DNA of 64,000 bases. It comes from Escherichia coli. Its GTDB lineage: Bacteria > Pseudomonadota > Gammaproteobacteria > Enterobacterales > Enterobacteriaceae. A model generated the notes under the pieces. It did not search any database and was not told the DNA's origin. It saw only the letters and a program-made list of their open reading frames with translations. This document shows, piece by piece, positions 39,938 to 64,000 of the stretch; the stretch's first letter is position 1, and every line of letters begins with the position of its first letter. The stretch lies in the NCBI RefSeq assembly GCF_024223415.1, contig NZ_CP100500.1. One strand, written 5' to 3'. A program made the translations under genes and the position numbers.

Positions 39938-40122
39938 CTTTTATCCTTAGTGAAAGAAAGACCCTTGTAAATGGCATAAATGCAGGGCGGGGTCAGAAAC
40001 GCCAGTGCAAAGCCAGAAATAACTGCTATCGTATCCTTCATGGATATAAGGAACGGAACGAGTAATCCGTAAATGCATGCGATAATTGCCAGTAAAATTA
40101 CTATTGTGAAATACAGTCTCAT
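39934..40122 (-). CDS. Small two-TM membrane protein translationally coupled to SPFH gene
   Basis: 62 aa, two hydrophobic helices; stop overlaps SPFH start codon in an ATGA arrangement. Confidence 0.5.
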   Translation of the reverse strand: MRLYFTIVILLAIIACIYGLLVPFLISMKDTIAVISGFALAFLTPPCIYAIYKGLSFTKDKR

Positions 40123-40298
40123 TGGTCTGTGGTATCCCGATATTTTTAACCGACTGACAGCGCAATAAAGAGAATAATGATTTCTGTTAGTGTCAGCACT
40201 GTGGCAAGGATTAAAATCAGTTTTACTCTGTTTAATTCACGGTTGCTTTTCATATAAACGGTTAGTAAAAAACGGAAGAATTATTTTCTTCTTAATAT

Positions 40299-40880
40299 TT
40301 AATGTGTCACTGGCGCTTCTGGCATACCATGAGTATTCAGGTCGTGAATCATTTCATCCAGAAGGAGTTCAAGCCCTTCGCGCCCCATAGCAGAGAGAAT
40401 GAAACCATTATCAGGATCTGCGATGAGCATTTTTTGATAGAGAAACAGAACTCGCCCCATGCCTTCAGTTTCGCCATATTTTTCAATAAATCCCCATTCG
40501 ACATGGTTTTGCAGGGCAATGCGAAGTGGTCCTGGGTATATACTTATGCAACCATGTTTCCCCTTGTAAATAACTGCGCGATCTGTCGTCCCGTTATCGT
40601 TAGGGATATCAATAGTGCCGTTCTTGTCTTCCTCTTCACTGATAAACTTCATCACATACAGCCAGCGCCACTGAGCAACCTTCAGATCGACTGAAAATCT
40701 TCCCAGCAATCCGGCATCATCAGCTTCGGCAAGACATTGCATGATTCTTAAACCGTGCCAGTATGGATTATCGAATTCGCCATCATTAAGCCGCTGTACG
40801 GCCTGAATATAATCAATGGTTGTATTACCAATTTTTATGCCATGTGGCGTTACTTCTGGTCGGAACTCTGAATGATTCAT
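40299..40880 (-). CDS. Hypothetical phage protein (about 193 aa from ATG at 40880)
   Basis: MNHSEFRPEVTPHGIKIGNTTIDYIQ...; no recognisable motif; ATGA overlap with upstream 67-aa ORF. Confidence 0.5.
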   Translation of the reverse strand: MNHSEFRPEVTPHGIKIGNTTIDYIQAVQRLNDGEFDNPYWHGLRIMQCLAEADDAGLLGRFSVDLKVAQWRWLYVMKFISEEEDKNGTIDIPNDNGTTDRAVIYKGKHGCISIYPGPLRIALQNHVEWGFIEKYGETEGMGRVLFLYQKMLIADPDNGFILSAMGREGLELLLDEMIHDLNTHGMPEAPVTH

Positions 40881-41080
40881 AATATTTGCTCCTTTGCTGG
40901 TGGAATAATCGTGTAGCCAGCTCTTTTTGCCATCCACAGAAATGTATCCATGCAGCCAACGAATTCATTATCCAGCAGATGTTTTGAGTAAATTACTTCA
41001 CCATTTTCAATGGTTAGCAACACTCTTACTTTTTTATGTGTTATGTTTTGTTGTTTTTCTTCCATTGACTTATCTCCCAT
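40877..41080 (-). CDS. Hypothetical small protein (67 aa) coupled to downstream gene
   Basis: MGDKSMEEKQQNITHKKVRVLLTIENGEVIY...; 4-nt overlap with next gene. Confidence 0.45.
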   Translation of the reverse strand: MGDKSMEEKQQNITHKKVRVLLTIENGEVIYSKHLLDNEFVGCMDTFLWMAKRAGYTIIPPAKEQIL

Positions 41081-41261
41081 ATGCTTTGCGCAAATACAGG
41101 TTGGCTATATGAAGATAAGAATCTCCATGTTGTGCAATGAGGCAGGCAGTTTTATACGATGCCTTATGTTTCAGGAAAGTCATAACATAATCTCCTGCGA
41201 ATAAAGGTTGCAACAATCCCCGGCGATAAAACCGTAATAAACATTCAGGGAATATTTATTG

Positions 41262-41627
41262 TTATTGCGCTAATTCTTTTTCGGCAGCAGATTTTGCATA
41301 TTCACATGCAAAATTCAGAATTTCGCTGCCAAGTGTTTTTGTTTCGTGATTACTGGACATATGTAATACCTGTGTTGCATGCAATAAATGATAAACATTT
41401 ACCGCAAATGAGTCCGGCTCCAGACAAATGCCTTCATAATCATCTTGTTGTGAGGTTGTTTCTGTCATTGCTCCTGAAGTGCATGCGAGCCTGTTTTTGA
41501 CAATTCTCTTTCCTCTAATCACTATATCGGCAACATCTATTGCCTTTACAACCTCCGGGAGAAGTTCCGGGTTTGTATAATCAAAGTCATCAACATGGAG
41601 AACAGTTATGTTTTCGAACTTTTTCAT
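41262..41627 (-). CDS. Hypothetical acidic phage protein (121 aa)
   Basis: MKKFENITVLHVDDFDYTNPELLPEVV...; second gene downstream of cI. Confidence 0.5.
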   Translation of the reverse strand: MKKFENITVLHVDDFDYTNPELLPEVVKAIDVADIVIRGKRIVKNRLACTSGAMTETTSQQDDYEGICLEPDSFAVNVYHLLHATQVLHMSSNHETKTLGSEILNFACEYAKSAAEKELAQ

Positions 41628-41755
41628 GGCTTCCTCAGCTGACTTATATGTTCTGCTATATAGCGAGTCTCAGAAGTGTTTTCATATTGAGACTGTTTCC
41701 GCAATGATTGATAAAAATGTTCGCATGTACCTTGAGGGGCGAAGCGGCGATTATG

Positions 41756-42304
41756 TCACCATTGGTATTGGTTCTTCCGTAGAAGAGCTTCGCGAGATAA
41801 GGAGCAAACTTGTTGAGATGCGTCATGGTGTTGCTGCTCCTCACTTTTTGGTTGCTCCGGAGGAGTAACCTCGCCAGTTAACAGCCACATCGGATCGCAG
41901 CCAAGAATATTTGCCAGTGGGGTAAGCATACTGATAGTTGGTTCATACTCTCCGCTCTCCCACTGGATGATGATTTCTTCATCGAGATCGAGCAGCCTGG
42001 CGAGTTCGGCGGTTGTTAAGCCGCAGGCTTCGCGTTGGGTGCGAAGGTTAACCAGCCAGCTTTTAGGGAAGGATTGTTTTTGTTGTGCAGGAGAAGCCGT
42101 AGATAGAGCATATTCATGGATAAATTCCATTACCTCAATGCCCAGTTCCTTTGAGCGAGCACAATCCAGAAGATGGAATGTGCGTACAGCACTTAGCAAA
42201 TTTGCAATATTTAATGCAAAGGAATCAAGTTCTAAGCCTTCAAGCGTAACACAGCCGCAGTTGATAAAATTAGTTGTTTCTGGAGTTGCTTTTAGTGTCT
42301 TCAT
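41756..42304 (-). CDS. Protein with unknown N-terminal domain and C-terminal XRE-type HTH
   Basis: HTH-like segment LRTQREACGLTTAELARLLDLDEEIIIQWESGEYEPTISMLTPLANILG in C-terminal half; first gene downstream of cI. Confidence 0.55.
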   Translation of the reverse strand: MKTLKATPETTNFINCGCVTLEGLELDSFALNIANLLSAVRTFHLLDCARSKELGIEVMEFIHEYALSTASPAQQKQSFPKSWLVNLRTQREACGLTTAELARLLDLDEEIIIQWESGEYEPTISMLTPLANILGCDPMWLLTGEVTPPEQPKSEEQQHHDASQQVCSLSREALLRKNQYQW

Positions 42305-42449
42305 ATACCCACCAACAATTTTAAATTGAATTTAATCAAGTTATAATTGATGGTGCGATATTATGCTTTGAGAAATAGGCTGTCAAGAAAAAATTGATAC
42401 CGTGTGTTTTAGGCAGAAAAAAACGGGCAAAGCCCGTTAAAATCAAAGA

Positions 42450-52914: not shown

Positions 52915-53254
52915 CTAAATTTCCAGGCTCGTGCTCACGGCCTGCTTCATATCCGCGCCAGGTCCGTCGCGATTAAACCACAGGGCTTTTCAGGAGGGGC
53001 CACAGAGAGCGTCACACTGACCATTCCCTGTGGCTTGTGCTGAGATCCGGTCAGTGAAATTGTGCAAAGGGAATCTTCGGGAGCTTTGGGCAGAATGTCA
53101 GTTATTGATGTTGACATCCTCCACACCCTGAAGGTCGGGGTTTTACGGCGCACTGGATAAAATACCTGAACAAACAGCCTCTTCGTGCGGCTTTTTTATA
53201 ACGAGATTCTGACTTGCTGCCGTCCGTAATGTCGGATGGCGGAGGTGAGGGACT

Positions 53255-53527
53255 ATGAGAATGGACGAACGATACAGTAACGCTGCATACGGCAGCGCAG
53301 GACTTGTTGCGTTCTTTGCCAGCCTGTCACTGCAGGATTGGGGATTTATTATCGGCGTGGCGTTCAGTATCATTCTTGGCGTTCTTACTTATCGCCTTAA
53401 CAAACGGGAGCAGGAAAAACGAACCCGCATATTGCTCGAAATTCTGGAACGAACTAATGCCGGTAATGTTCCGGCTACGGCACATGCTGTGGCTGAGATT
53501 GCGAAAAAGGCACCAAAAGAAATATGA
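53255..53527 (+). CDS. Pinholin (phage 21 S-like) with dual-start motif
   Basis: Starts M-R-M; pattern AYGSAG...W...IGV...LTYRLNKREQEKR resembles S21-type pinholin; precedes SAR endolysin. Confidence 0.6.
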   Translation: MRMDERYSNAAYGSAGLVAFFASLSLQDWGFIIGVAFSIILGVLTYRLNKREQEKRTRILLEILERTNAGNVPATAHAVAEIAKKAPKEI

Positions 53528-53683
53528 CGAATATCCCGGGAGTGAGGGGATAATATACCTTTTAACAAAATCCGGGAACATGAAACGCCCGGAACGTTTC
53601 ATGAGGCATGCCCCGTGGGGAGCAGGGCATAACTGTGCGGAATAGCTTTCATTGTGATATCAATAATCACGGTATTCAAAATA

Positions 53684-54061
53684 TTACGGGCCTGTGGGAT
53701 CAGGTTGTTTTTTGTCTGATTCCAGAGGGAAGGGACGCTGTTTCGGTTCTCTGAACTTTAGTGATAATGAATTGAAAATCCTCATTTTTTGCTGCCATGC
53801 ATAATGTCTGTCCCATGAACAGGGGGGGCTCAATTCTTCATTCACCCATGCGTTAATATCTTGTTTCAGGTGTTGAAGCATACGGGGTGTTAATGCACTC
53901 ATAATAATATCCAGCGTTTTATGCGAGAGTTTACCGTAAGGGTCTGCAAGGATGCTGCTCGTTGCTTCGTTATTATCCACCATAAGTGGAAGTAGCGCTG
54001 ATTTAACTTTTTCTGTCATTAGTTGCAAAAATCTACTGCGCAAATTTTCTTTACTGTTCAT
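53684..54061 (-). CDS. Hypothetical protein on opposite strand inside the lysis cassette
   Basis: 125-aa ORF in the 655-bp gap between pinholin and endolysin. Confidence 0.35.
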   Translation of the reverse strand: MNSKENLRSRFLQLMTEKVKSALLPLMVDNNEATSSILADPYGKLSHKTLDIIMSALTPRMLQHLKQDINAWVNEELSPPCSWDRHYAWQQKMRIFNSLSLKFREPKQRPFPLESDKKQPDPTGP

Positions 54062-54184
54062 TTCTGAAGCCTCATCTGTTGTCGTTTGGTTTTCCTGAAC
54101 GGGTATGTTTATGAGACATGCTGGTACTGGATTATATACCTGATATATCCAGGGTTATAAACCTTTAGATCCTGATAAATATAC

Positions 54185-54718
54185 ATGAACGCAAAAATCA
54201 GATACGGCCTGTCGGCTGCCGTTCTGGCGCTGATTGGTGCTGGCGCATCTGCTCCTCAGATACTTGATCAGTTTCTGGACGAAAAAGAGGGTAACCACAC
54301 AACGGCATACCGCGATGGGTCCGGCATCTGGACCATCTGTCGGGGTGCCACGATGGTGGATGGAAAACCCGTTTTTCCCGGAATGAAGCTGTCGAAGGAA
54401 AAATGCGACCAGGTTAACGCTATTGAACGTGATAAGGCACTGGCATGGGTGGAGCGCAATATTAAAGTACCTCTGACCGAACCACAGAAAGCGGGTATTG
54501 CGTCATTCTGTCCCTATAACATTGGCCCCGGTAAGTGTTTCCCGTCGACGTTTTATAAGCGGCTTAATGCCGGTGATCGAAAAGGCGCCTGCGAGGCGAT
54601 TCGCTGGTGGATAAAGGATGGTGGGCGCGATTGCCGCATACGTTCAAATAACTGCTATGGACAGGTTATTCGTCGTGACCAGGAAAGCGCATTAGCCTGT
54701 TGGGGGATAGATCAGTGA
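54185..54718 (+). CDS. SAR endolysin (phage lysozyme, R21 type)
   Basis: 177 aa; N-terminal Gly/Ala-rich SAR segment [17 protein letters not shown]; catalytic E-x8-D-x5-T in [16 protein letters not shown]. Confidence 0.85.
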
Positions 54719-55182
54719 GCAGAGTCGCCGCGATTATTTATGCTCTGGTTATCTGCATCATCGTCTGCCTGTCGTGGGCGGTCAATCATTACCGTGATAA
54801 CGCCATCGCCTACAAAGAACAGCGAGATAAAAAAGTCAGTGAGCTGAAGCAGGCGACCGCCACCATTACTGACATGCAGCAACGCCAGCGTGCTGCTGAT
54901 GTACTCGATGCTAAATACACGAAGGAGTTAGCTGATGCGAAAGCTAAAAATGATGCTCTTCGGCGCAAGCTTGATAATGGTGGCAGGGTGCTCGTCAAAG
55001 GAAAATGCCCTGTGCCATCCTCAGCCGAAACCTCCAGCGCCTCCGGCATGGGCAATGATGCCACCGTCGAACTCTCTCCAGTTGCTGGACGAAACGTTCT
55101 CGGTGTCCGGGACGGAATTATCCGCGACCAAACAGCACTGAGAACGCTTCAGGAATACATCAGGACGCAATGCCTTCGATGA
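54700..55182 (+). CDS. Rz i-spanin
   Basis: N-terminal TM ([19 protein letters not shown]) then coiled coil; overlaps endolysin stop; exact start uncertain. Confidence 0.75.
54935..55141 (+). CDS. Rz1 o-spanin lipoprotein embedded in Rz
   Basis: +1-frame ORF inside Rz; lipobox VAGC; proline-rich [11 protein letters not shown]. Confidence 0.7.
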
Positions 55183-55400
55183 TAGCGATAATTTTACTCA
55201 TCATCCTTCACATCTGGCTCTGTAGACAGGGTGGTGATCACTTCTGGAGTGAATCCAGATTAAACATCTCATTGCTGATTCTTGATATTGAGCATCTGGC
55301 GCGCGGTAAGGGGCTGCGTTGAGATAAGAGCCAGTCATCACAAACACCAGGATTTAGCCTCGCATTCGCGGGGCTTTTTATTGCAACAAAGGTAAAGACG

Positions 55401-55688
55401 ATGGATGAAGAATATCGTAAAAACCTGCAACTGTGGTTTGGTCTTACGCATGCGTCGTTCTGCGTGATGCCGCGAGTATTCATGGAGGCTATGCCACCAG
55501 AATGGCAAGAGAAGATGGCTCAGTTGCTTTTTGAGTATAGCGACACAATCAAAACGGATGTCTGCGGAGTTCACAGCTGTTTTGTTACTGCCAAAGACGG
55601 CAACAACCGCTTTATGAGGATGCCAGAAGATATTCTGAACTATCGTCATCCCCGACGTGAATTCATCGAATCATTTCTGAAGAAGTAG
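55401..55688 (+). CDS. Hypothetical phage protein (95 aa)
   Basis: ORF downstream of spanins. Confidence 0.4.
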   Translation: MDEEYRKNLQLWFGLTHASFCVMPRVFMEAMPPEWQEKMAQLLFEYSDTIKTDVCGVHSCFVTAKDGNNRFMRMPEDILNYRHPRREFIESFLKK

Positions 55689-56309
55689 CCATTACAAAGC
55701 CTATCTACGGGTGGGCTTGATAATGAAACCAGAATTTATTCTGGGAAACCAGTTACGGCAGTACAGCGAAACAACCCAAGCCAGTAAGTGGGGAAATAAC
55801 ACTGGCAGCCACTGAAAGATGAACCTCCTGCCTTATGGCAAAAAAGATTCTTTGTGGTGGCGGACTGATGGAAAGACATCGGTTATTGCAGAGACCATTC
55901 AATGAGTGGTCTCGACAATGGCTTATACCCTACACGGGATAACTTAACTGATATCCCTTTTAACGGATAAAGGTATTCAAGCCTGACATATCATGCGCTG
56001 TATCGTCGCCGTATTCCCGTATTAACAGAGACCGTAGCCCGACGGGGAACTCCTTCTGCGCGAGTGTGCGGGAATAATCAAAAACGATGCACACCGGGTT
56101 TTTACCGCGTTTATGGTTCGCGGGTTTGTCCCTCATGCTCGCCAGTCCGGTGCGATGGTGGAAGAAACCGGAAGCTGTATTACAGAAAGTGCTACTACTG
56201 TATCCTGATGCGATGTATGTAATGTGAGTCAGATAATGGCACAGGATGTGGTGATGTGGCAGTCTGGAACACAGGATATATTGTCAGAATAAGACCCGTA
56301 GGAATAAAA

Positions 56310-56636: not shown

Positions 56637-57000
56637 TGCTTCCAGGTAGAGAGGGGCTGGAAGCAGGAGAAAAATGAAAGAGCCAGCGGTTATATTTTTG
56701 TCATGGCTGACGAGAAATGATGGAAGAAGGCGTTGTATGCCACACAACGCCTCACTGTTCATTTCTTCTTTTTCTCTGGTGTAACCCGATGAATAAGAGT
56801 TGCACTGGTTTCCGATGAGATGGCGATATGCTCGGGCAAAGTATGCTGGCAGTTTTCCAACTGGTCAAAAATACCTGCTCTCGTCTGTTGCAATGCCTGC
56901 AGCATGCGGCGGCAATGCGCCTTTGCTTTTGCTAACCATCTTTCCTTACTCTATCAGTCGCTGCGTGAACTCATCATGGAATACCAGGTAAATGCGGATG

Positions 57001-57252
57001 TTATCGGTTTTGGCTACGCAGCATAGTACAAAACGGACAGGTGCATCCCGGAATGGGGGAGGCGTCACATGTCCCTGTGATGGTTGTTCCGGGTAATGCA
57101 CTGTGTGGGGCATAAAAATGTCCGATAATTTTACTTTCTACCGCAGTTAGTTGATTCGTTGGTCCTGGTAGCACATTGGGCGAGGGTTTAAATGCCAGGC
57201 AACTGAAGGATGATGTTGCAAGGGAGATAGCGAGAATATTTCTGATTTTCAT
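57001..57252 (-). CDS. Small secreted cysteine-rich protein (moron candidate)
   Basis: From ATG 57252: MKIRNILAISLATSSFSCLAF... signal peptide; six Cys in mature part. Confidence 0.35.
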   Translation of the reverse strand: MKIRNILAISLATSSFSCLAFKPSPNVLPGPTNQLTAVESKIIGHFYAPHSALPGTTITGTCDASPIPGCTCPFCTMLRSQNR

Positions 57253-57403
57253 TTGATGATGCCTCTGTGTGAAATGACGGTAAACGACGCACTTGTGCCG
57301 GCACATAATAGCAAGCATCAGAATAGATCAGATTCGATTCTTGCTGTAAGTGATAATTATTCTCGTTTTTTTCGGGTCCTTTCCGGCGATCCAACAGGTT
57401 ACG

Positions 57404-57415
57404 GGGCGTCGACCT
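57404..57415 (+). other. cosN cohesive-end site (lambda-type)
   Basis: GGGCGTCGACCT, one mismatch from lambda GGGCGGCGACCT; flanking CTCGCG(C)GTTTTCGCTATTTATGAAAATTTTCCGG also matches lambda cos. Confidence 0.75.
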
Positions 57416-57449
57416 CGCGCGTTTTCGCTATTTATGAAAATTTTCCGGG

Positions 57450-57560
57450 ATCCATGTCCGGTTTCTCTGCAAGTTAACTATATGAAAAATATAAAAACAT
57501 GCTTTCTGCGAACCGGACATGTGCAAAAAATGTACAAACAAACCGGACATATGCGTGCGT
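57450..57560. promoter_or_regulatory. cosB-like terminase-binding repeats
   Basis: Three copies of CCGGACAT(G/A)TG core (one inverted) between cosN and terS. Confidence 0.5.
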
Positions 57561-57627
57561 TTGCATAAAGTTGCTCGCAAGATGCATGTTTAAAACGCAT
57601 GAGGGGAGATTTTTTGCGAGGTGAACA

Positions 57628-58137
57628 GTGGCTACGCAGACTGAAGTTGCCAGGCATTTGAGTCTGACCGATCGCCAGCTTCGCAGACTGCAGAAATTGC
57701 CGGGTGCCCCGATATCGAATAAGCGAGGGCAACTGGATCTGGATGCCTGGCGTGATTTTTACATATCGTATCTGAGAAGAAGTAAAAACGATGTGCCTGA
57801 TGGCGATAGCGAAGACGACTATGAGGAGAAATTGCTTATTGCCAGATGGGAACTGACAGCAGAACAGGCTGTTACACAGCAGTTAAAAAATGAGGTGTCA
57901 AAAGGAAAACTTATTGACACCGGATTCTGTATTTTTGCCCTCAGCAAGCTGGCAATGGCGTTATCCAGTACGCTTGATTCCATCCCTTTATCCATGCAAC
58001 GACAGTTTCCTGATTTAACACCGCGCCATCTTGACCATCTGAAAACCCTTATTGCGAAGGGGGCAAATCAGTGTGCGCGGGCAGGGGATAAATTACCGGA
58101 TTTACTCGATGAATATATCAGAGCAACAACTGAATAA
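57628..58137 (+). CDS. Terminase small subunit (Nu1-like)
   Basis: 169 aa; C-terminal region resembles lambda Nu1 (FPDLTPRHLDHLK... vs lambda FPELENRHVDFLK). Confidence 0.85.
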   Translation: MATQTEVARHLSLTDRQLRRLQKLPGAPISNKRGQLDLDAWRDFYISYLRRSKNDVPDGDSEDDYEEKLLIARWELTAEQAVTQQLKNEVSKGKLIDTGFCIFALSKLAMALSSTLDSIPLSMQRQFPDLTPRHLDHLKTLIAKGANQCARAGDKLPDLLDEYIRATTE

Positions 58138-60037
58138 TATGATGAGTGCTGTCACAACAGCATTACAGCCCCTGATAAGGGCATTGCCGGTGACGGCAGT
58201 TGAATGGGCTGATCAAAATTATTATCTGCCTAAAGAATCTTCATATGGTGAGGGAGAATGGAAAACGCTGCCGTTCCAGATCGCCATCATGAACTGTATG
58301 GGCAACGATCTGATTCGCACTGTTAACCTGATTAAATCTGCCCGTGTTGGTTATACAAAGATGTTGCTGGGGGTGGTCGGGTATTTTATTGAGCATAAAT
58401 CCCGAAACAGTCTGCTTTTTCAGCCCACGGATTCTGCCGCTGAAGATTTTATGAAGTCTCACGTGGAGACGACGATTAGGGACGTGCCATGCCTGAAAGA
58501 CCTTTCCCCATGGCTGGGTCGTAAACATCGTGATAATACCCTCACGCTGAAACGCTTTTCATCGGGCGTCGGTTTCTGGTGCCTGGGCGGCGCTGCCGCC
58601 AAAAACTACCGTGAAAAATCCGTGGACGTGGTCTGCTATGACGAACTCTCATCGTTTGAACCTGATGTTGAAAAAGAGGGCTCGCCAACCCTGCTGGGGG
58701 ATAAGCGTATTGAGGGCTCTGTATGGCCAAAATCCATTCGCGGCTCGACGCCTAAAATCAAAGGCTCCTGCCAGATCGAAAAAGCCGCTAACGAGTCGGC
58801 ACATTTCATGCGTTTTTATGTGCCCTGTCCGCACTGTGGGGAGGAGCAGTATCTGAAATTTGGTGATGATGCCTCGGCTTTCGGTCTTAAGTGGGAGAAG
58901 AATAAGCCAGAAAGTGTTTTCTACCTTTGTGAGCATCATGGCTGTGTGATCCATCAGTCTGAGCTTGACCAGAGTAACGGGCGGTGGATCTGTGAAAACA
59001 CGGGGATGTGGACCCGTGACGGTCTGACGTTTTTCAGCGCCCGGGGTGATGAAATTCCGCCGCCGCGCTCCATCACTTTCCATATCTGGACGGCGTACAG
59101 TCCGTTCACCACCTGGGTACAGATAGTCTATGACTGGCTGGATGCACTGAAAGATCCCAACGGCCTGAAAACCTTTGTGAACACCACGCTGGGCGAGACC
59201 TGGGAAGAGGCCGTGGGCGAAAAACTCGATCACCAGGTACTGATGGATAAGGTTGTGCGTTACACGGCGGCGGTGCCTGCCCGGGTGGTTTATCTGACGG
59301 CGGGCATTGACTCGCAGCGAAACCGTTTTGAGATGTATGTCTGGGGATGGGCTCCGGGAGAGGAAGCCTTTCTGGTGGATAAAATCATCATTATGGGACG
59401 TCCCGATGAGGAAGAGACGCTGTTACGTGTGGATGCGGCGATCAACAAAAAATACTGCCATGCAGACGGAACCGAAATGACCATTTCCCGTGTCTGCTGG
59501 GACATCGGGGGGATCGATGGCGAAATCGTTTATCAGAGGTCAAAAAAACACGGTGTTTTCCGGGTGCTGCCGGTAAAAGGCGCATCTGTCTATGGCAAGC
59601 CGGTGATCACCATGCCAAAAACCCGCAATCAGCGGGGCGTGTATCTGTGTGAAGTGGGGACGGACACCGCAAAAGAAATTCTCTATGCCCGTATGAAAGC
59701 CGCTCCCACGCCTGCGGATGAATCCACGTCGTATGCCATCCGTTTTCCTGATGATCCGGAGATTTTTTCGCAGACAGAGGCGCAGCAACTGGTCGCGGAA
59801 GAGCTTGTGGAGAAGTGGGAAAAAGGAAAGATGCGTCTGCTGTGGGATAACAAAAAGCGGCGTAACGAAGCGCTGGACTGCCTGGTGTATGCCTACGCGG
59901 CATTACGTGTGTCCGTGCAACGCTGGCAGCTTGATCTGGCTGTACTGGCAAAATCCCGGGAAGAAGAGACGACCCGGCCAACCCTTAAAGAACTGGCAGC
60001 GAAGCTGTCCGGAGGAGTGAATGGTTACAGTCGCTGA
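58109..60037 (+). CDS. Terminase large subunit (gpA-like)
   Basis: MNISEQQLNN...TAVEWADQNYYLPKESSYGEGEWKTLPFQIAIMN...; 642 aa. Confidence 0.92.
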   Translation: MNISEQQLNNMMSAVTTALQPLIRALPVTAVEWADQNYYLPKESSYGEGEWKTLPFQIAIMNCMGNDLIRTVNLIKSARVGYTKMLLGVVGYFIEHKSRNSLLFQPTDSAAEDFMKSHVETTIRDVPCLKDLSPWLGRKHRDNTLTLKRFSSGVGFWCLGGAAAKNYREKSVDVVCYDELSSFEPDVEKEGSPTLLGDKRIEGSVWPKSIRGSTPKIKGSCQIEKAANESAHFMRFYVPCPHCGEEQYLKFGDDASAFGLKWEKNKPESVFYLCEHHGCVIHQSELDQSNGRWICENTGMWTRDGLTFFSARGDEIPPPRSITFHIWTAYSPFTTWVQIVYDWLDALKDPNGLKTFVNTTLGETWEEAVGEKLDHQVLMDKVVRYTAAVPARVVYLTAGIDSQRNRFEMYVWGWAPGEEAFLVDKIIIMGRPDEEETLLRVDAAINKKYCHADGTEMTISRVCWDIGGIDGEIVYQRSKKHGVFRVLPVKGASVYGKPVITMPKTRNQRGVYLCEVGTDTAKEILYARMKAAPTPADESTSYAIRFPDDPEIFSQTEAQQLVAEELVEKWEKGKMRLLWDNKKRRNEALDCLVYAYAALRVSVQRWQLDLAVLAKSREEETTRPTLKELAAKLSGGVNGYSR

Positions 60038-60227
60038 ACTGCAGGCGCTGCGTCAGGCGCGCCTTGATTTATTAACCGGTAAACGGGTGGTGTCTGTCCA
60101 GAAAGATGGTCGCAGAATTGAATATACGGCGGCTTCTCTGGATGAGCTTAACCGGGCGATCAATGATGCGGAGTCGGTACTGGGGACAACCCGACGTCGC
60201 CGTCGTCCGCTGGGAGTGAGGTTATGA
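60021..60227 (+). CDS. Head-tail joining protein (gpW-like)
   Basis: 68 aa between terminase and portal. Confidence 0.8.
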   Translation: MVTVAELQALRQARLDLLTGKRVVSVQKDGRRIEYTAASLDELNRAINDAESVLGTTRRRRRPLGVRL

Positions 60228-61816
60228 AAAGAACGCCTGTCCTGATTGATGTGAACGGCGTTCCGCTTCGTGAGAGTCTCAGCTACAACGGGGGCGGCGC
60301 AGGATTTGGCGGGCAAATGGCGGAGTGGTTGCCACCGGCGCAGAGTGTCGATGCGGCCCTGCTGCCCGCGTTGCGTCTGGGGAATGCCCGGGCAGATGAT
60401 CTGGTGCGCAATAACGGAATAGCGGCTAATGCGGTGGCCCTGCATAAGGATCACATAGTCGGGCATATGTTTCTGATCAGCTACCGTCCGAACTGGCGCT
60501 GGCTGGGGATGCGGGAGACCGCAGCAAAAAGCTTTGTCGATGAGGTGGAGGCGGCCTGGTCGGAATACGCCGAAGGGATGTCTGGCGAGATCGACGTGGA
60601 AGGAAAACGCACGTTCACGGAATTTATCCGGGAAGGCGTGGGCGTTCATGCGTTTAACGGCGAAATCTTTGTGCAGCCGGTCTGGGATGCGGAGACTACG
60701 CAGCTGTTTCGTACGCGTTTTAAAGCCGTGAGTCCGAAACGGGTGGACACGCCAGGATACGGTTTGGGGAACCGCTTTCTGCGGGCCGGGGTGGAGGTCG
60801 ATCGGCATGGACGGGCCGTTGCGTACCATATCTGTGAGGATGATTTTCCGCTCTCTGGTAGTGGACGATGGGAACGGATCCCGCGTGAACTTCCCACCGG
60901 GCGTCCGGCCATGCTGCATATTTTCGAGCCGGTTGAGGACGGGCAGACCCGTGGGGCTAATCAGTTTTACAGCGTCATGGAACGGCTGAAAATGCTCGAT
61001 TCCCTGCAGGCAACACAGCTTCAGTCAGCCATAGTGAAGGCGATGTATGCAGCGACGATTGAAAGTGAACTTGATACCGAAAAGGCCTTTGAATATATCG
61101 CCGGTGCGCCGGAGGGGCAGAAGGATAATCCGCTTATTAATATTCTGGAGAAGTTCTCCAGCTGGTATGACACGAATAACGTGACACTGGGCGGTGTCAA
61201 AATTCCGCACCTTTTCCCCGGTGATGATCTGAAACTACAGACTGCGCAGGATTCAGACAATGGATTTTCTGCGCTTGAACAGGCGCTGCTGCGGTATATC
61301 GCCGCCGGTCTTGGCGTTTCCTACGAACAGTTGTCCCGTGATTACTCGAAGGTCAGCTATTCAAGTGCCCGCGCCTCCGCCAATGAGTCGTGGCGCTATT
61401 TTATGGGGCGGCGAAAATTTATTGCGGCCCGGCTGGCCACGCAGATGTTTTCCTGCTGGCTGGAAGAGGCTCTTCTGCGGGGGATTATTCGTCCGCCACG
61501 GGCGCGTTTTGATTTTTATCAGGCGCGTTCATCCTGGTCACGGGCAGAGTGGATTGGAGCCGGAAGAATGGCCATTGACGGGCTCAAGGAGGTCCAGGAA
61601 TCGGTGATGCGCATTGAGGCCGGACTGAGCACGTATGAGAAAGAGCTGGCGCTGATGGGTGAGGATTATCAGGACATTTTCCGCCAGCAGGTCAGGGAAT
61701 CTGCAGAGCGGGAAAAAGCCGGACTCTCACGTCCGGTGTGGATAGCGCAGGCGTATCAGCAGCAGATAGCGGCGAGTCGCAGGCCGGAAGAGGAGACAAC
61801 ACCACGTGAGACGTAA
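60224..61816 (+). CDS. Portal protein (gpB-like)
   Basis: 530 aa, lambda head-gene order. Confidence 0.88.
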   Translation: MKRTPVLIDVNGVPLRESLSYNGGGAGFGGQMAEWLPPAQSVDAALLPALRLGNARADDLVRNNGIAANAVALHKDHIVGHMFLISYRPNWRWLGMRETAAKSFVDEVEAAWSEYAEGMSGEIDVEGKRTFTEFIREGVGVHAFNGEIFVQPVWDAETTQLFRTRFKAVSPKRVDTPGYGLGNRFLRAGVEVDRHGRAVAYHICEDDFPLSGSGRWERIPRELPTGRPAMLHIFEPVEDGQTRGANQFYSVMERLKMLDSLQATQLQSAIVKAMYAATIESELDTEKAFEYIAGAPEGQKDNPLINILEKFSSWYDTNNVTLGGVKIPHLFPGDDLKLQTAQDSDNGFSALEQALLRYIAAGLGVSYEQLSRDYSKVSYSSARASANESWRYFMGRRKFIAARLATQMFSCWLEEALLRGIIRPPRARFDFYQARSSWSRAEWIGAGRMAIDGLKEVQESVMRIEAGLSTYEKELALMGEDYQDIFRQQVRESAEREKAGLSRPVWIAQAYQQQIAASRRPEEETTPRET

Positions 61817-63311
61817 TCTTTCACACATTATTGCCGCAGCATTCAATGAACCGCTGCTTCTGGAGCCCGCCTATGCGCGGGTTTTCTTTTGCGCGCTCGG
61901 GCGCGAGATGGGGGCAGCAAGTCTTTCGGTACCACAACAGCAGGTACAGCTTGATGCTCCCGGAATGCTGGCTGAAACGGACGAGTACATGGCCGGAGGT
62001 AAACGACCGGCCCGTGTTTACCGGGTGGTGAACGGTATTGCTGTACTGCCGGTGACCGGCATGCTGGTGCACCGGCTGGGTGGTATGCGGCCATTTTCCG
62101 GAATGACAGGCTATGACGGCATTGTCGCCTGTCTTCAGCAGGCAATGGCGGACACCGCTGTCCGGGGCGTACTGCTGGACATTGACAGTCCGGGCGGGCA
62201 GGTCGCAGGCGCGTTTGACTGCGCTGACATGATTTACCGCCTCCGTCAGCAGAAGCCGGTCTGGGCACTGTGCAATGACACGGCCTGTTCTGCAGCCATG
62301 CTGCTGGCGTCGGCCTGCTCCCGACGGCTGGTTACCCAGACATCCCGTATCGGCTCCATTGGCGTGATGATGAGCCATCTCAGCTATGCCGGTCATCTGG
62401 CGCAGGCCGGTGTGGATATCACGCTGATTTATGCCGGGGCGCACAAGGTGGATGGCAATCAGTTTGAAGCCTTACCGGAAGAGGTGCGTCAGGACATGCA
62501 GCAGCGCATTGATGCGGCACACCGGATGTTTGCCGAAAAAGTGGCGATGTATACCGGGCTGTCTGTGGATGTGGTCACGGGAACAGAGGCCGCCGTTTTT
62601 GAAGGTCAGTCCGGCATTGAGGCCGGGCTGGCGGATGAATTAGTCAATGCGTCGGATGCCATCAGTGTGATGACCACGGCGCTGTACACACATGATACAG
62701 GAGGCACTATGCCGCAATTAACTGCAACGGAAGCCGCCGCGCAGGAGAACCAGCGAGTGATGGGGATCCTGACGAGTAAGGAAGCGAAAGGACGTGAACA
62801 GCTTGCCACGATGCTGGCGGGACAACAGGGCATGAGCGTTGAACAGGCCCGGGAGATCCTGGCCGCGGCGGCACCACAGCAGCCGGTGGCATCCGCGCAG
62901 AGTGAAGCCGATCGCATTATGGCGTGTGAAGAGGCGAAAGGTCGTGAACAACTGGCGGCAACGCTGGCGGCGATGCCGGAGATGACGGTGGAAAAAGCCC
63001 GCCCGATCCTGGCAGCTTCACCGCAGGCGGATGCCGGACCATCACTCCGTGATCAGATCATGGCCCTGGATGAGGCAAAAGGGGCTGAGGCGCAGGCTGA
63101 ACAGCTGGCTGCCTGCCCGGGAATGACCGTGGAGAACGCCCGGGCTGTGCTGGCTGCGGGATCAGGTAAGGCAGAACCGGTCTCTGCATCCACAACCGCC
63201 ATGTTTGAACATTTCATGGCGAACCATTCACCGGCAGCGGTACAGGGTGGCGTGCCACAGACGTCAGCAGACGGTGATGCGGACGTGAAAATGCTCATGG
63301 CCATGCCATGA
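61806..63311 (+). CDS. Capsid maturation protease/scaffold (gpC-Nu3-like, ClpP fold) with C-terminal tandem repeats
   Basis: 501 aa; C-terminal region contains three imperfect ~38-aa repeats (EAKGREQLA...M.VE.AR.ILAA). Confidence 0.8.
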   Translation: MRRNLSHIIAAAFNEPLLLEPAYARVFFCALGREMGAASLSVPQQQVQLDAPGMLAETDEYMAGGKRPARVYRVVNGIAVLPVTGMLVHRLGGMRPFSGMTGYDGIVACLQQAMADTAVRGVLLDIDSPGGQVAGAFDCADMIYRLRQQKPVWALCNDTACSAAMLLASACSRRLVTQTSRIGSIGVMMSHLSYAGHLAQAGVDITLIYAGAHKVDGNQFEALPEEVRQDMQQRIDAAHRMFAEKVAMYTGLSVDVVTGTEAAVFEGQSGIEAGLADELVNASDAISVMTTALYTHDTGGTMPQLTATEAAAQENQRVMGILTSKEAKGREQLATMLAGQQGMSVEQAREILAAAAPQQPVASAQSEADRIMACEEAKGREQLAATLAAMPEMTVEKARPILAASPQADAGPSLRDQIMALDEAKGAEAQAEQLAACPGMTVENARAVLAAGSGKAEPVSASTTAMFEHFMANHSPAAVQGGVPQTSADGDADVKMLMAMP

Positions 63312-63347
63312 AGCCAGTGCTGACCATCAATAGGAGGTTTTTACAAT

Positions 63348-63695
63348 ATGGTAACGAAAACCATCACTGAACAGCGTGCGGAAGTACGTATTTTTGCCGG
63401 TAATGATCCGGCTCATACCGCCACAGGCAGCAGCGGGATTTCCTCGCCAACACCGGCACTGACGCCCCTGATGCTGGATGAAGCCACCGGGAAACTGGTG
63501 GTCTGGGACGGACAGAAAGCCGGTAGTGCGGTTGGCATACTGGTACTGCCGCTTGAAGGCACAGAGACGGTGCTGACGTATTACAAGTCGGGAACCTTTG
63601 CGACGGAGGCAATCCGCTGGCCTGACAGTGTGGATGAACACAAAAAGGCCAACGCCTTTGCCGGTAGTGCCCTGAGTCACGCGGCGCTGCCGTAA
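63348..63695 (+). CDS. Capsid decoration protein (gpD-like)
   Basis: 115 aa; resembles lambda D (DPAHTATG..., LTPLMLDEATGKLVVWDG..., YYKSGTF...). Confidence 0.88.
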   Translation: MVTKTITEQRAEVRIFAGNDPAHTATGSSGISSPTPALTPLMLDEATGKLVVWDGQKAGSAVGILVLPLEGTETVLTYYKSGTFATEAIRWPDSVDEHKKANAFAGSALSHAALP

Positions 63696-63752
63696 CACGT
63701 TATCAGGCCACCGCGGTGGCCTGACTGATTTCTGAATGAAAGGAACTGATTT

Positions 63753-64000
63753 ATGGGATTGTTTACGACCCGCCAGTTACTCGGTTATACCGAACAAAAA
63801 GTGAAATTTCGTGCGCTGTTTCTGGAGCTGTTTTTCCGTCGTACGGTGAATTTCCATACCGAAGAGGTGATGCTGGACAAAATTACCGGAAAAACGCCGG
63901 TGGCGGCCTATGTCTCCCCGGTTGTTGAAGGAAAAGTGCTGCGTCATCGTGGTGGTGAAACCCGCGTGTTGCGTCCGGGCTACGTCAAGCCGAAACACGA
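63753..64000 (+). CDS. Major capsid protein (gpE-like), N-terminal part, runs off window end
   Basis: From ATG 63753: MGLFTTRQLLGYTEQKVKFRALFLELFFRR...YVSPVVEGKVLRHRGGETRVLRPGYVKPKH resembles lambda E N-terminus. Confidence 0.8.
   Translation, partial: MGLFTTRQLLGYTEQKVKFRALFLELFFRRTVNFHTEEVMLDKITGKTPVAAYVSPVVEGKVLRHRGGETRVLRPGYVKPKH

Follow-up and report, generated by a model that had tools for sequence, protein, structure and literature searches.

Three repeats in the scaffold part of a lambdoid prophage head protease correspond to the Tri boxes of phage 21

Why does a lambda-type head protease encoded by an Escherichia coli prophage carry three consecutive copies of one short motif close to its C-terminus? 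The question is raised by a gene at 61806-63311 (plus strand) in a window of 64,000 nucleotides (nt) from E. coli contig NZ_CP100500.1 (assembly GCF_024223415.1), and all coordinates below refer to this window unless another sequence is named. The gene encodes a protein of 501 amino acids (aa). A first-pass annotation had interpreted the repeats as a possible expansion by slippage that might alter capsid assembly. Judged by their position and sequence, the three repeats are the ‘Tri boxes’ that are already annotated in phage 21, and the feature is therefore already known. As an explanation of the locus as a whole, we consider it highly probable that the gene is a phage 21-type allele of the lambda C/Nu3 head gene, carried by a lambdoid E. 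coli prophage. The repeats leave the function of the gene unchanged and represent its normal form.

The presence of three imperfect tandem repeats in the C-terminal scaffold part of the protein was confirmed by self-comparison. The best diagonal windows of 30 aa (BLOSUM62) scored 88 for repeats R1 and R2 (offset 50), 83 for R2 and R3 (offset 47) and 72 for R1 and R3 (offset 97), against a mean of 31 (standard deviation 4.2) and a maximum of 46 in 200 shuffled sequences; the same result was obtained when only the C-terminal 200 aa were shuffled. The motif EAKG recurs at aa 326, 376 and 423, corresponding to nt 62781, 62931 and 63072. A profile of the unit was built from alignment A1, which contains 11 units of different phages. 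It delimits R1 to aa 310-360 (62733-62885, 82 bits), R2 to aa 364-410 (62895-63035, 77 bits) and R3 to aa 411-458 (63036-63179, 67 bits), all on the plus strand, and all three fit the conserved motif E-A-x-G-R-E...L-A...M-(S/T)-V...A...L-A-A. The units thus span 62733-63179, and the region 62740-63190 proposed in the first-pass annotation is essentially right. The repeat length of about 38 aa given there holds for the conserved core but not for the period, which is 47-50 aa. The first helix of R1 is full-length, as in the single unit of lambda, whereas that of R2 and R3 is 3 aa shorter, and R3 is the most degenerate copy, with KGAE in place of the conserved KGRE. The scaffold part of the protein also matches the PHROG scaffold profiles phrog_8399 and phrog_8940, each of which contains a single unit and each of which matches in three stretches. 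In the DNA sequence, the repeat is weak: R1 and R2 are the only pair that aligns (70% over 97 nt), and a run of Tandem Repeats Finder (TRF) on 61800-63400 yielded no array in the repeat region. The repeats can therefore be recognized in the protein sequence only. The unit is not represented by any Pfam or NCBIfam model, and a PDB sequence search with the unit profile returned only noise (E ≥ 0.2).

Over all 1506 nt, the gene is 96.5% identical in DNA to gene 5/6 of phage 21, without indels. GenBank entry M81255 (‘Bacteriophage 21 head gene operon’), which dates from the 1990s, annotates gene 5 together with a nested, in-frame gene 6 with its ribosome-binding site (RBS), and contains three repeat_region features named ‘Tri1 box’, ‘Tri box’ and ‘Tri3 box’, each marked ‘function unknown; putative’. 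Transferred to the window, these boxes of 104-114 nt lie at 62776-62879, 62916-63026 and 63057-63170, where they coincide with the three profile matches and are contained in R1, R2 and R3, respectively. The paper underlying this head operon entry is reportedly that of Smith and Feiss from 1993 (Gene 126:1-7). The triple repeat has thus been on record for about three decades and carries little weight as a discovery. In the phage 21 genome OL657228, the pair of genes is labeled ‘capsid protease/scaffolding protein’ and ‘scaffolding protein’. The lengths of the two products (501 and 200 aa), the nested start, the RBS and the equal positions of the three boxes are common to phage 21 and the window. 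The genes differ by allelic substitutions only, such as TSKEAKG in the window versus a TCQEANG-type sequence in phage 21, and the copy in the window belongs to a chromosomal prophage that differs in its early region. Besides phage 21, about 19 other isolated phages carry the same gene, e.g. ev017, 4A7 and PhiR57_1. As these viable phages have the same form of the gene, there is no sign of abnormal capsid assembly, and the altered assembly suggested in the first-pass annotation finds no support, given that viable phage 21 uses this gene as its regular head gene.

The 501-aa protein is gpC-like, as had been proposed. It comprises a Peptidase S49 (SppA-like) domain at aa 146-291 (62241-62678, plus strand; Pfam PF01343, E=6.3e-36) and matches the head maturation protease family phrog_53 over its full length (E=1e-223). 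Judged by motif, the S49 serine is probably Ser162. Its only solved relatives by sequence are the SppA proteases 3rst and 4kwb (E ~5e-16, aa 77-289). Together, these matches identify it as a lambda gpC-type prohead protease. All features tested for the type of lambda gpC and phage 21 gp5 were present, namely the S49 domain, a position between the portal gene and the genes for the decoration and major capsid proteins, as in the lambda-type head module, and an internal start with an RBS. This RBS is a GGAGG sequence at 62700-62704 (plus strand), and an equivalent site is annotated in both phage 21 records. An ATG located 4 nt after it opens the nested, in-frame gene 6 (62709-63311, plus strand; annotated in M81255 and OL657228), which encodes a Nu3-like scaffolding protein of 200 aa. 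Since the window retains the GGAGG and ATG of phage 21, the C-terminal 200 aa are presumably also produced separately as scaffold, as the phage 21 annotation and the conserved start suggest. The nested protein equals the C-terminus of the protease, so that its whole sequence is common to both products. For the 200-aa scaffold part, no significant match to a Pfam or NCBIfam model was obtained. Protease and scaffold also share a C-terminal tail after the last unit (63180-63308, plus strand), for which the helices AMFEHFMANH and DADVKMLM are predicted. In an alignment of C-termini, this tail (AMFEHFMANHSP...DADVKMLMAMP) is homologous to the lambda tail ALDRLMQGAP...NDLLNTPV, and its beginning resembles the beginning of the unit (repeat family D2 in the self-comparison).

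Comparison with lambda and its relatives explains the additional length of the protein. A tblastn search with the 200-aa part found a single place of 153 nt, onto which R1 as well as R2 maps, in lambda, 434, HK630, N15, phi80, HK225 and others. One unit each is present in the proteins of 426-447 aa from lambda, N15, phi80, Aeromonas phage phiARM81ld, Stenotrophomonas phage BCU1 and E. coli 569R10. In the lambda-type proteins, this single unit is preceded by a low-complexity stretch of about 60 aa rich in S, T, A and Q. Three units with almost no leader are found in the proteins of 498-501 aa from the window, phage 21 and Salmonella Gifsy-1. The two extra units therefore account for the length over lambda gpC that had been noticed in the first pass. 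Lambda gpC/gpNu3, N15 and phi80 gp5/gp6 otherwise share the S49 domain, the location between portal and D/E genes, the nested scaffold, the unit and the tail with the window gene. Gifsy-1 STM2605 (498 aa) has the same three units, including the long R1 helix and the R2 and R3 that are 3 aa shorter, and its R2 is 80% identical to that of the window; it differs in being only ~59% identical in the scaffold part and in retaining KGRE in its R3. Across homologues, the number of repeats varies from 1 to 4, and no homologue of equal length without repeats was found.

In alignment A1, which includes units from Escherichia, Salmonella, Aeromonas and Stenotrophomonas phages, 10 columns are invariant and several more are nearly so, including the EAKGRE turn. 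The core of the unit is about 40 aa long, with the consensus R-x-M-G-I-L-x-C-x-E-A-K-G-R-E-x-L-A-x-x-L-A-x-x-P-G-M-T-V-E-x-A-R-x-I-L-A-A-A-P. By this alignment, each repeat is a copy of a conserved core of the Nu3 scaffold family that occurs once in lambda. To determine how widely this core is spread, 1.84 billion cluster representatives (50% identity) were searched exhaustively with the unit profile in HMMER. The unit was detected in 2,105 representative proteins at E ≤ 1e-3 and in 290 at E ≤ 1e-10. Nearly all of them have one stretch, either near the C-terminus of proteins of 400-460 aa or in proteins of 110-150 aa. The census of copy numbers was based on this search, while a word-indexed protein search, which gave mostly fragments at contig ends, was used for variants. 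In every locus examined, the unit adjoins gpD- and gpE-type genes. Two metagenomic proteins, P0111 and P0214 (198 and 223 aa; locus L014), combine two Nu3-type units with a different motif behind them, W-D/E-x-x-L-x-S-R-G-M/L, which occurs twice; they may represent a distinct type of stand-alone scaffold.

The slippage interpretation predicts a young and unstable array, with a copy number that varies among close relatives and perturbs capsid assembly. The age of the triplication points the other way. The three-unit layout is common to Gifsy-1, P0089, P0062, P0073 and P0088, and a long R1 with R2 and R3 3 aa shorter recurs in every three-unit lineage that was examined. The R1 of the window is 77% identical to R1 of P0089 and 69% to R1 of Gifsy-1, and, as given above, the R2 copies of the window and Gifsy-1 are 80% identical, whereas the units within the window protein are only 51-63% identical to each other. 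R3 ties in this respect, being 63% identical to both Gifsy-1 R3 and window R2. Because the layout is shared and the units are closer by position across lineages than within the protein, the triplication is old and arose before these phage lineages of E. coli and Salmonella diverged. Conservation among 14 three-copy homologues amounted to 0.65-0.79 for the unit cores and 0.27-0.47 for the linkers, which indicates that all three copies are under constraint. Amino acid conservation per region was used here instead of a ratio of non-synonymous to synonymous substitutions (dN/dS) against Gifsy-1, as synonymous sites are probably saturated at a protein identity of ~59%.

The gene is also stable in length among E. 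coli genomes. Its 603-nt scaffold segment is present in 1869 of 5426 complete genomes, at 2918 places. Of 1874 E. coli records, 1868 (>99%) are near full length and keep at least 80% of the segment, and a length of exactly 603 nt was counted in 57 of 60 records sampled at even intervals. A small number of length variants does exist among the ~1,870 E. coli records. Strain UTAK-4 (NZ_CP157156.1, locus L010, 98-1648) has a perfect tandem duplication of 45 nt within R3 (ACPGMTVESARAVLA twice), which corresponds to ~63110-63155 of the window and results in a protein of 516 aa. A deletion of 57 nt in R2 is found in H54 and H176 and is consistent with protein cluster P0012 (53 members), in which 19 aa of R2 are gone. 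P0018 shows a clean loss of R2 and P0022 an in-register fusion of R1 and R2.

Other copy numbers occur in separate lineages. A four-unit form, an S49 peptidase of 538 aa in the same portal-protease-D-E module, is present in 106 of 5426 E. coli genomes (e.g. E. coli SA53-3, locus L013, 628-2244; also L012). Units 2-4 of this form share 83-91% identity and are reported by TRF as an array (period 138, 3.7 copies, 78% matches, score 536), which points to a much younger expansion or homogenization than in the window gene. Independent two-unit forms occur in distant modules, e.g. P0212, a metagenomic block of GpA, portal, S49, HDPD and Phage_cap_E. These forms and the variants above indicate that duplication of the unit is recurrent across the family. 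Copy number differs between lineages (1, 2, 3 or 4) and is stable within each.

The rare indels, the fusion or loss of R2 and the TRF-detectable array of the four-unit lineage are the observations in favor of slippage. For the window gene, however, adjacent copies lack the high DNA identity expected of a recent expansion (70% over 97 nt for the best pair, and no TRF array), close relatives show no copy-number polymorphism, the layout and positional orthology extend to Gifsy-1 and other diverged lineages, and isolated, viable phages carry the same form. A recent slippage expansion is accordingly very unlikely; the duplication in the window gene is old and fixed.

A DNA-level origin of the periodicity, e.g. 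from binding sites for regulators or signals for recombination within the gene, was considered as well. In OL657228, two ‘CII binding site’ features are marked in gene 6 on the opposite strand (locus L002, 2409-2422 and 2643-2656, minus strand), corresponding to ~62714-62727 and 62948-62961 of the window, and one of them lies in R2. These sites are matches to a consensus pattern only (TTGYNNNNNNTTGY). The DNA similarity between the units is weak, yet the protein motif is kept across homologues of ~30% identity, the repeats stay in the reading frame and hydrophobic and charged residues are kept at constant distances. We regard a DNA element as the least probable of the explanations, with hardly any likelihood left to it.

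The 200-aa scaffold was modeled with AlphaFold2 (AF2) using an alignment of 70 rows. The mean predicted local distance difference test score (pLDDT) was 83.7, with values >90 inside the units and lower values in the linkers and tail, and the predicted template modeling score (pTM) was 0.42. Three helices are predicted for each unit, at Nu3 residues 6-21, 30-37 and 44-53 for R1 (core pLDDT ≥ 93), 66-71, 80-88 and 94-103 for R2, and 113-118, 127-135 and 141-152 for R3. In each unit, the invariant EA-x-G-R-E is located at the turn between helices 1 and 2. Two further helices at residues 160-173 and 190-197 are predicted for the tail, with a pLDDT of 53-83. Each unit is thus predicted to be a small three-helix bundle on flexible linkers, and the pTM argues against a fixed arrangement between the units. 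A Foldseek search of the whole model against the PDB returned nothing. The closest structural matches in the PDB are three-helix bundles of a generic kind, some of which, like protein A, are tandem binding modules; the identity to protein A domains, GA and UBA/CUE-like bundles is 2-17%, a generic fold resemblance that provides no evidence of homology or of a shared ligand.

A function can be proposed from what is known of lambda. In lambda, portal, C protease and Nu3 scaffold together make up the initiator, around which the capsid protein E assembles (PMC3224144). Interactions of Nu3 with B, C and E as well as with itself have been reported, and the scaffold is degraded before packaging takes place (PMC3224144). 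One reading frame in the window would likewise give two products, the S49 prohead protease gp5 (501 aa) and the scaffolding protein gp6 (200 aa, start at 62709). As both share the region of units and tail, whatever binds this region brings both into the shell. We propose that the unit serves for docking or self-association and thereby holds scaffold and protease inside the assembling shell, and that its partner would be the gpE-type capsid protein, the portal or another unit. Three units on flexible linkers would make the chain multivalent, replacing the oligomerization that the single-unit Nu3 needs. After assembly, the protease would cut the chain and the pieces would leave. We give this assignment of a multivalent docking or self-association module roughly even chances of being correct. 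The P22 scaffold likewise ends in a small helical module, a C-terminal helix-turn-helix that a preprint describes as essential for coat binding (bioRxiv 10.1101/2022.12.13.520362) and that is plausible as a functional analogue of the unit. No sequence or fold similarity between the unit and this P22 domain was found.

Several points weigh against this proposal. A serious alternative is that targeting to the capsid depends on the conserved tail at the extreme C-terminus rather than on the units. GenBank lists the boxes as ‘function unknown’. In the phage 21 lineage, the conserved Arg of R3 is missing (KGAE), and natural variants without all or part of R2 exist, so that three full units may not be strictly required. 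In addition, lambda gpNu3 appears as an intrinsically disordered protein in the title of Medina et al. (2011), which tempers trust in a model of folded bundles, although the long N-terminal linker of lambda could account for the disorder.

The repeats might alternatively serve only as a helical spacer rich in Ala and Gln, giving length between the protease domain and a capsid-targeting tail. The ~60-aa linker of the single-unit homologues is absent in the three-unit proteins, as if the extra units had replaced a spacer, the region has no Pfam domain, and variants with a damaged R2 persist in genomes. A mere spacer, however, would not be expected to keep 10 invariant positions and a charged EAKGRE turn across phages of four genera, or to be recognizable in 2,105 clusters at 50% identity. 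The units are also clearly better conserved than the linkers, and AF2 is confident in a defined three-helix fold. We therefore consider a spacer role improbable.

A variant closer to the proposed docking module is that the unit mediates oligomerization between scaffolds, or between scaffold and protease, rather than binding to capsid or portal, in which case three copies would yield a cross-linked internal core. Nu3-Nu3 and C-Nu3 interactions have been reported for lambda (PMC3224144), protease and scaffold share exactly the region of the units, so that homotypic contacts would co-assemble both, and in other phages the contact with the capsid is usually made via the extreme C-terminus, for which a separate conserved tail is available here. 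The same interaction map also includes Nu3-E and Nu3-B contacts, however (PMC3224144), and the AF2 model, at its pTM of 0.42, shows no confident packing of unit on unit within one chain. Purely homotypic oligomerization is thus possible but doubtful. Equally tentative is the broader idea that the unit, which occurs in at least 2,105 protein clusters at 50% identity, constitutes a three-helix ‘Nu3 domain’ not yet catalogued, through which lambda-type scaffolds and proteases actually dock, and that phages tune scaffold valency by a copy number of 1-4 that arose independently in several lineages. In that case, a three-unit scaffold would work as a monomer where the single-unit Nu3 must oligomerize, and fewer copies would be needed per procapsid.

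Irrespective of the exact role of the unit, the gene is among the commonest prophage genes of E. coli, being present in about one third of the complete genomes, and the Nu3-family core is widespread yet has no Pfam model or solved structure. Natural scaffolds with 1, 3 and 4 copies serve very similar T=7 lambda-type heads, and form a series in which scaffold valency can be related to procapsid assembly.

The surrounding genes form a lambda-type head block at the end of the window, as seen from the list of open reading frames (ORFs) and the sequence: terminase, W, portal, protease/scaffold, decoration and capsid, the last three on the plus strand. The large terminase ORF ends at 60037 and is followed by a W-like gene at 60021-60227 and the portal gene at 60224-61816. 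The protease ORF (61806-63311) starts with GTG and overlaps the end of the portal gene. Downstream, a head decoration protein of 115 aa (gpD/Shp-like) is encoded at 63348-63695, with phage 21 shp at an equal offset. The gene for the major capsid protein (gpE/gp7-like) starts at 63753, again at the offset of phage 21 gene 7, and leaves the window, which contains only its first 248 nt (63753-64000). Within the stretch that codes for the N-terminal part of the protease, a near-palindromic sequence of 15 nt (TGCCGGTGACCGGCA) is present in 1.9 copies at 62047-62076; it is the only TRF match in the gene and is probably coincidental.

The closest complete genome is that of E. coli Ch1, in which the locus (L011) is 99.9% identical. 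Its downstream major capsid gene (L011, 10948-11975) is annotated as a frameshifted pseudogene, so the Ch1 prophage may be defective. The prophage in the window is a mosaic: its early, replication and Q region (40000-56000) resembles Stx-converting and PhiR49_2-type phages most closely (88-93%), while the head module (57000-64000) is of the phage 21 type (96.5%). In the late region, adjacent genes for tRNA-Met(CAT) and tRNA-Lys(TTT) are located at 52686-52839, downstream of the Q antiterminator, the site where Stx phages carry tRNAs and toxin genes. In strain Ch1, no toxin gene is annotated between this tRNA pair and the lysis genes, and the RefSeq annotation of this near-identical strain lists the first of the two tRNAs as tRNA-Ile.

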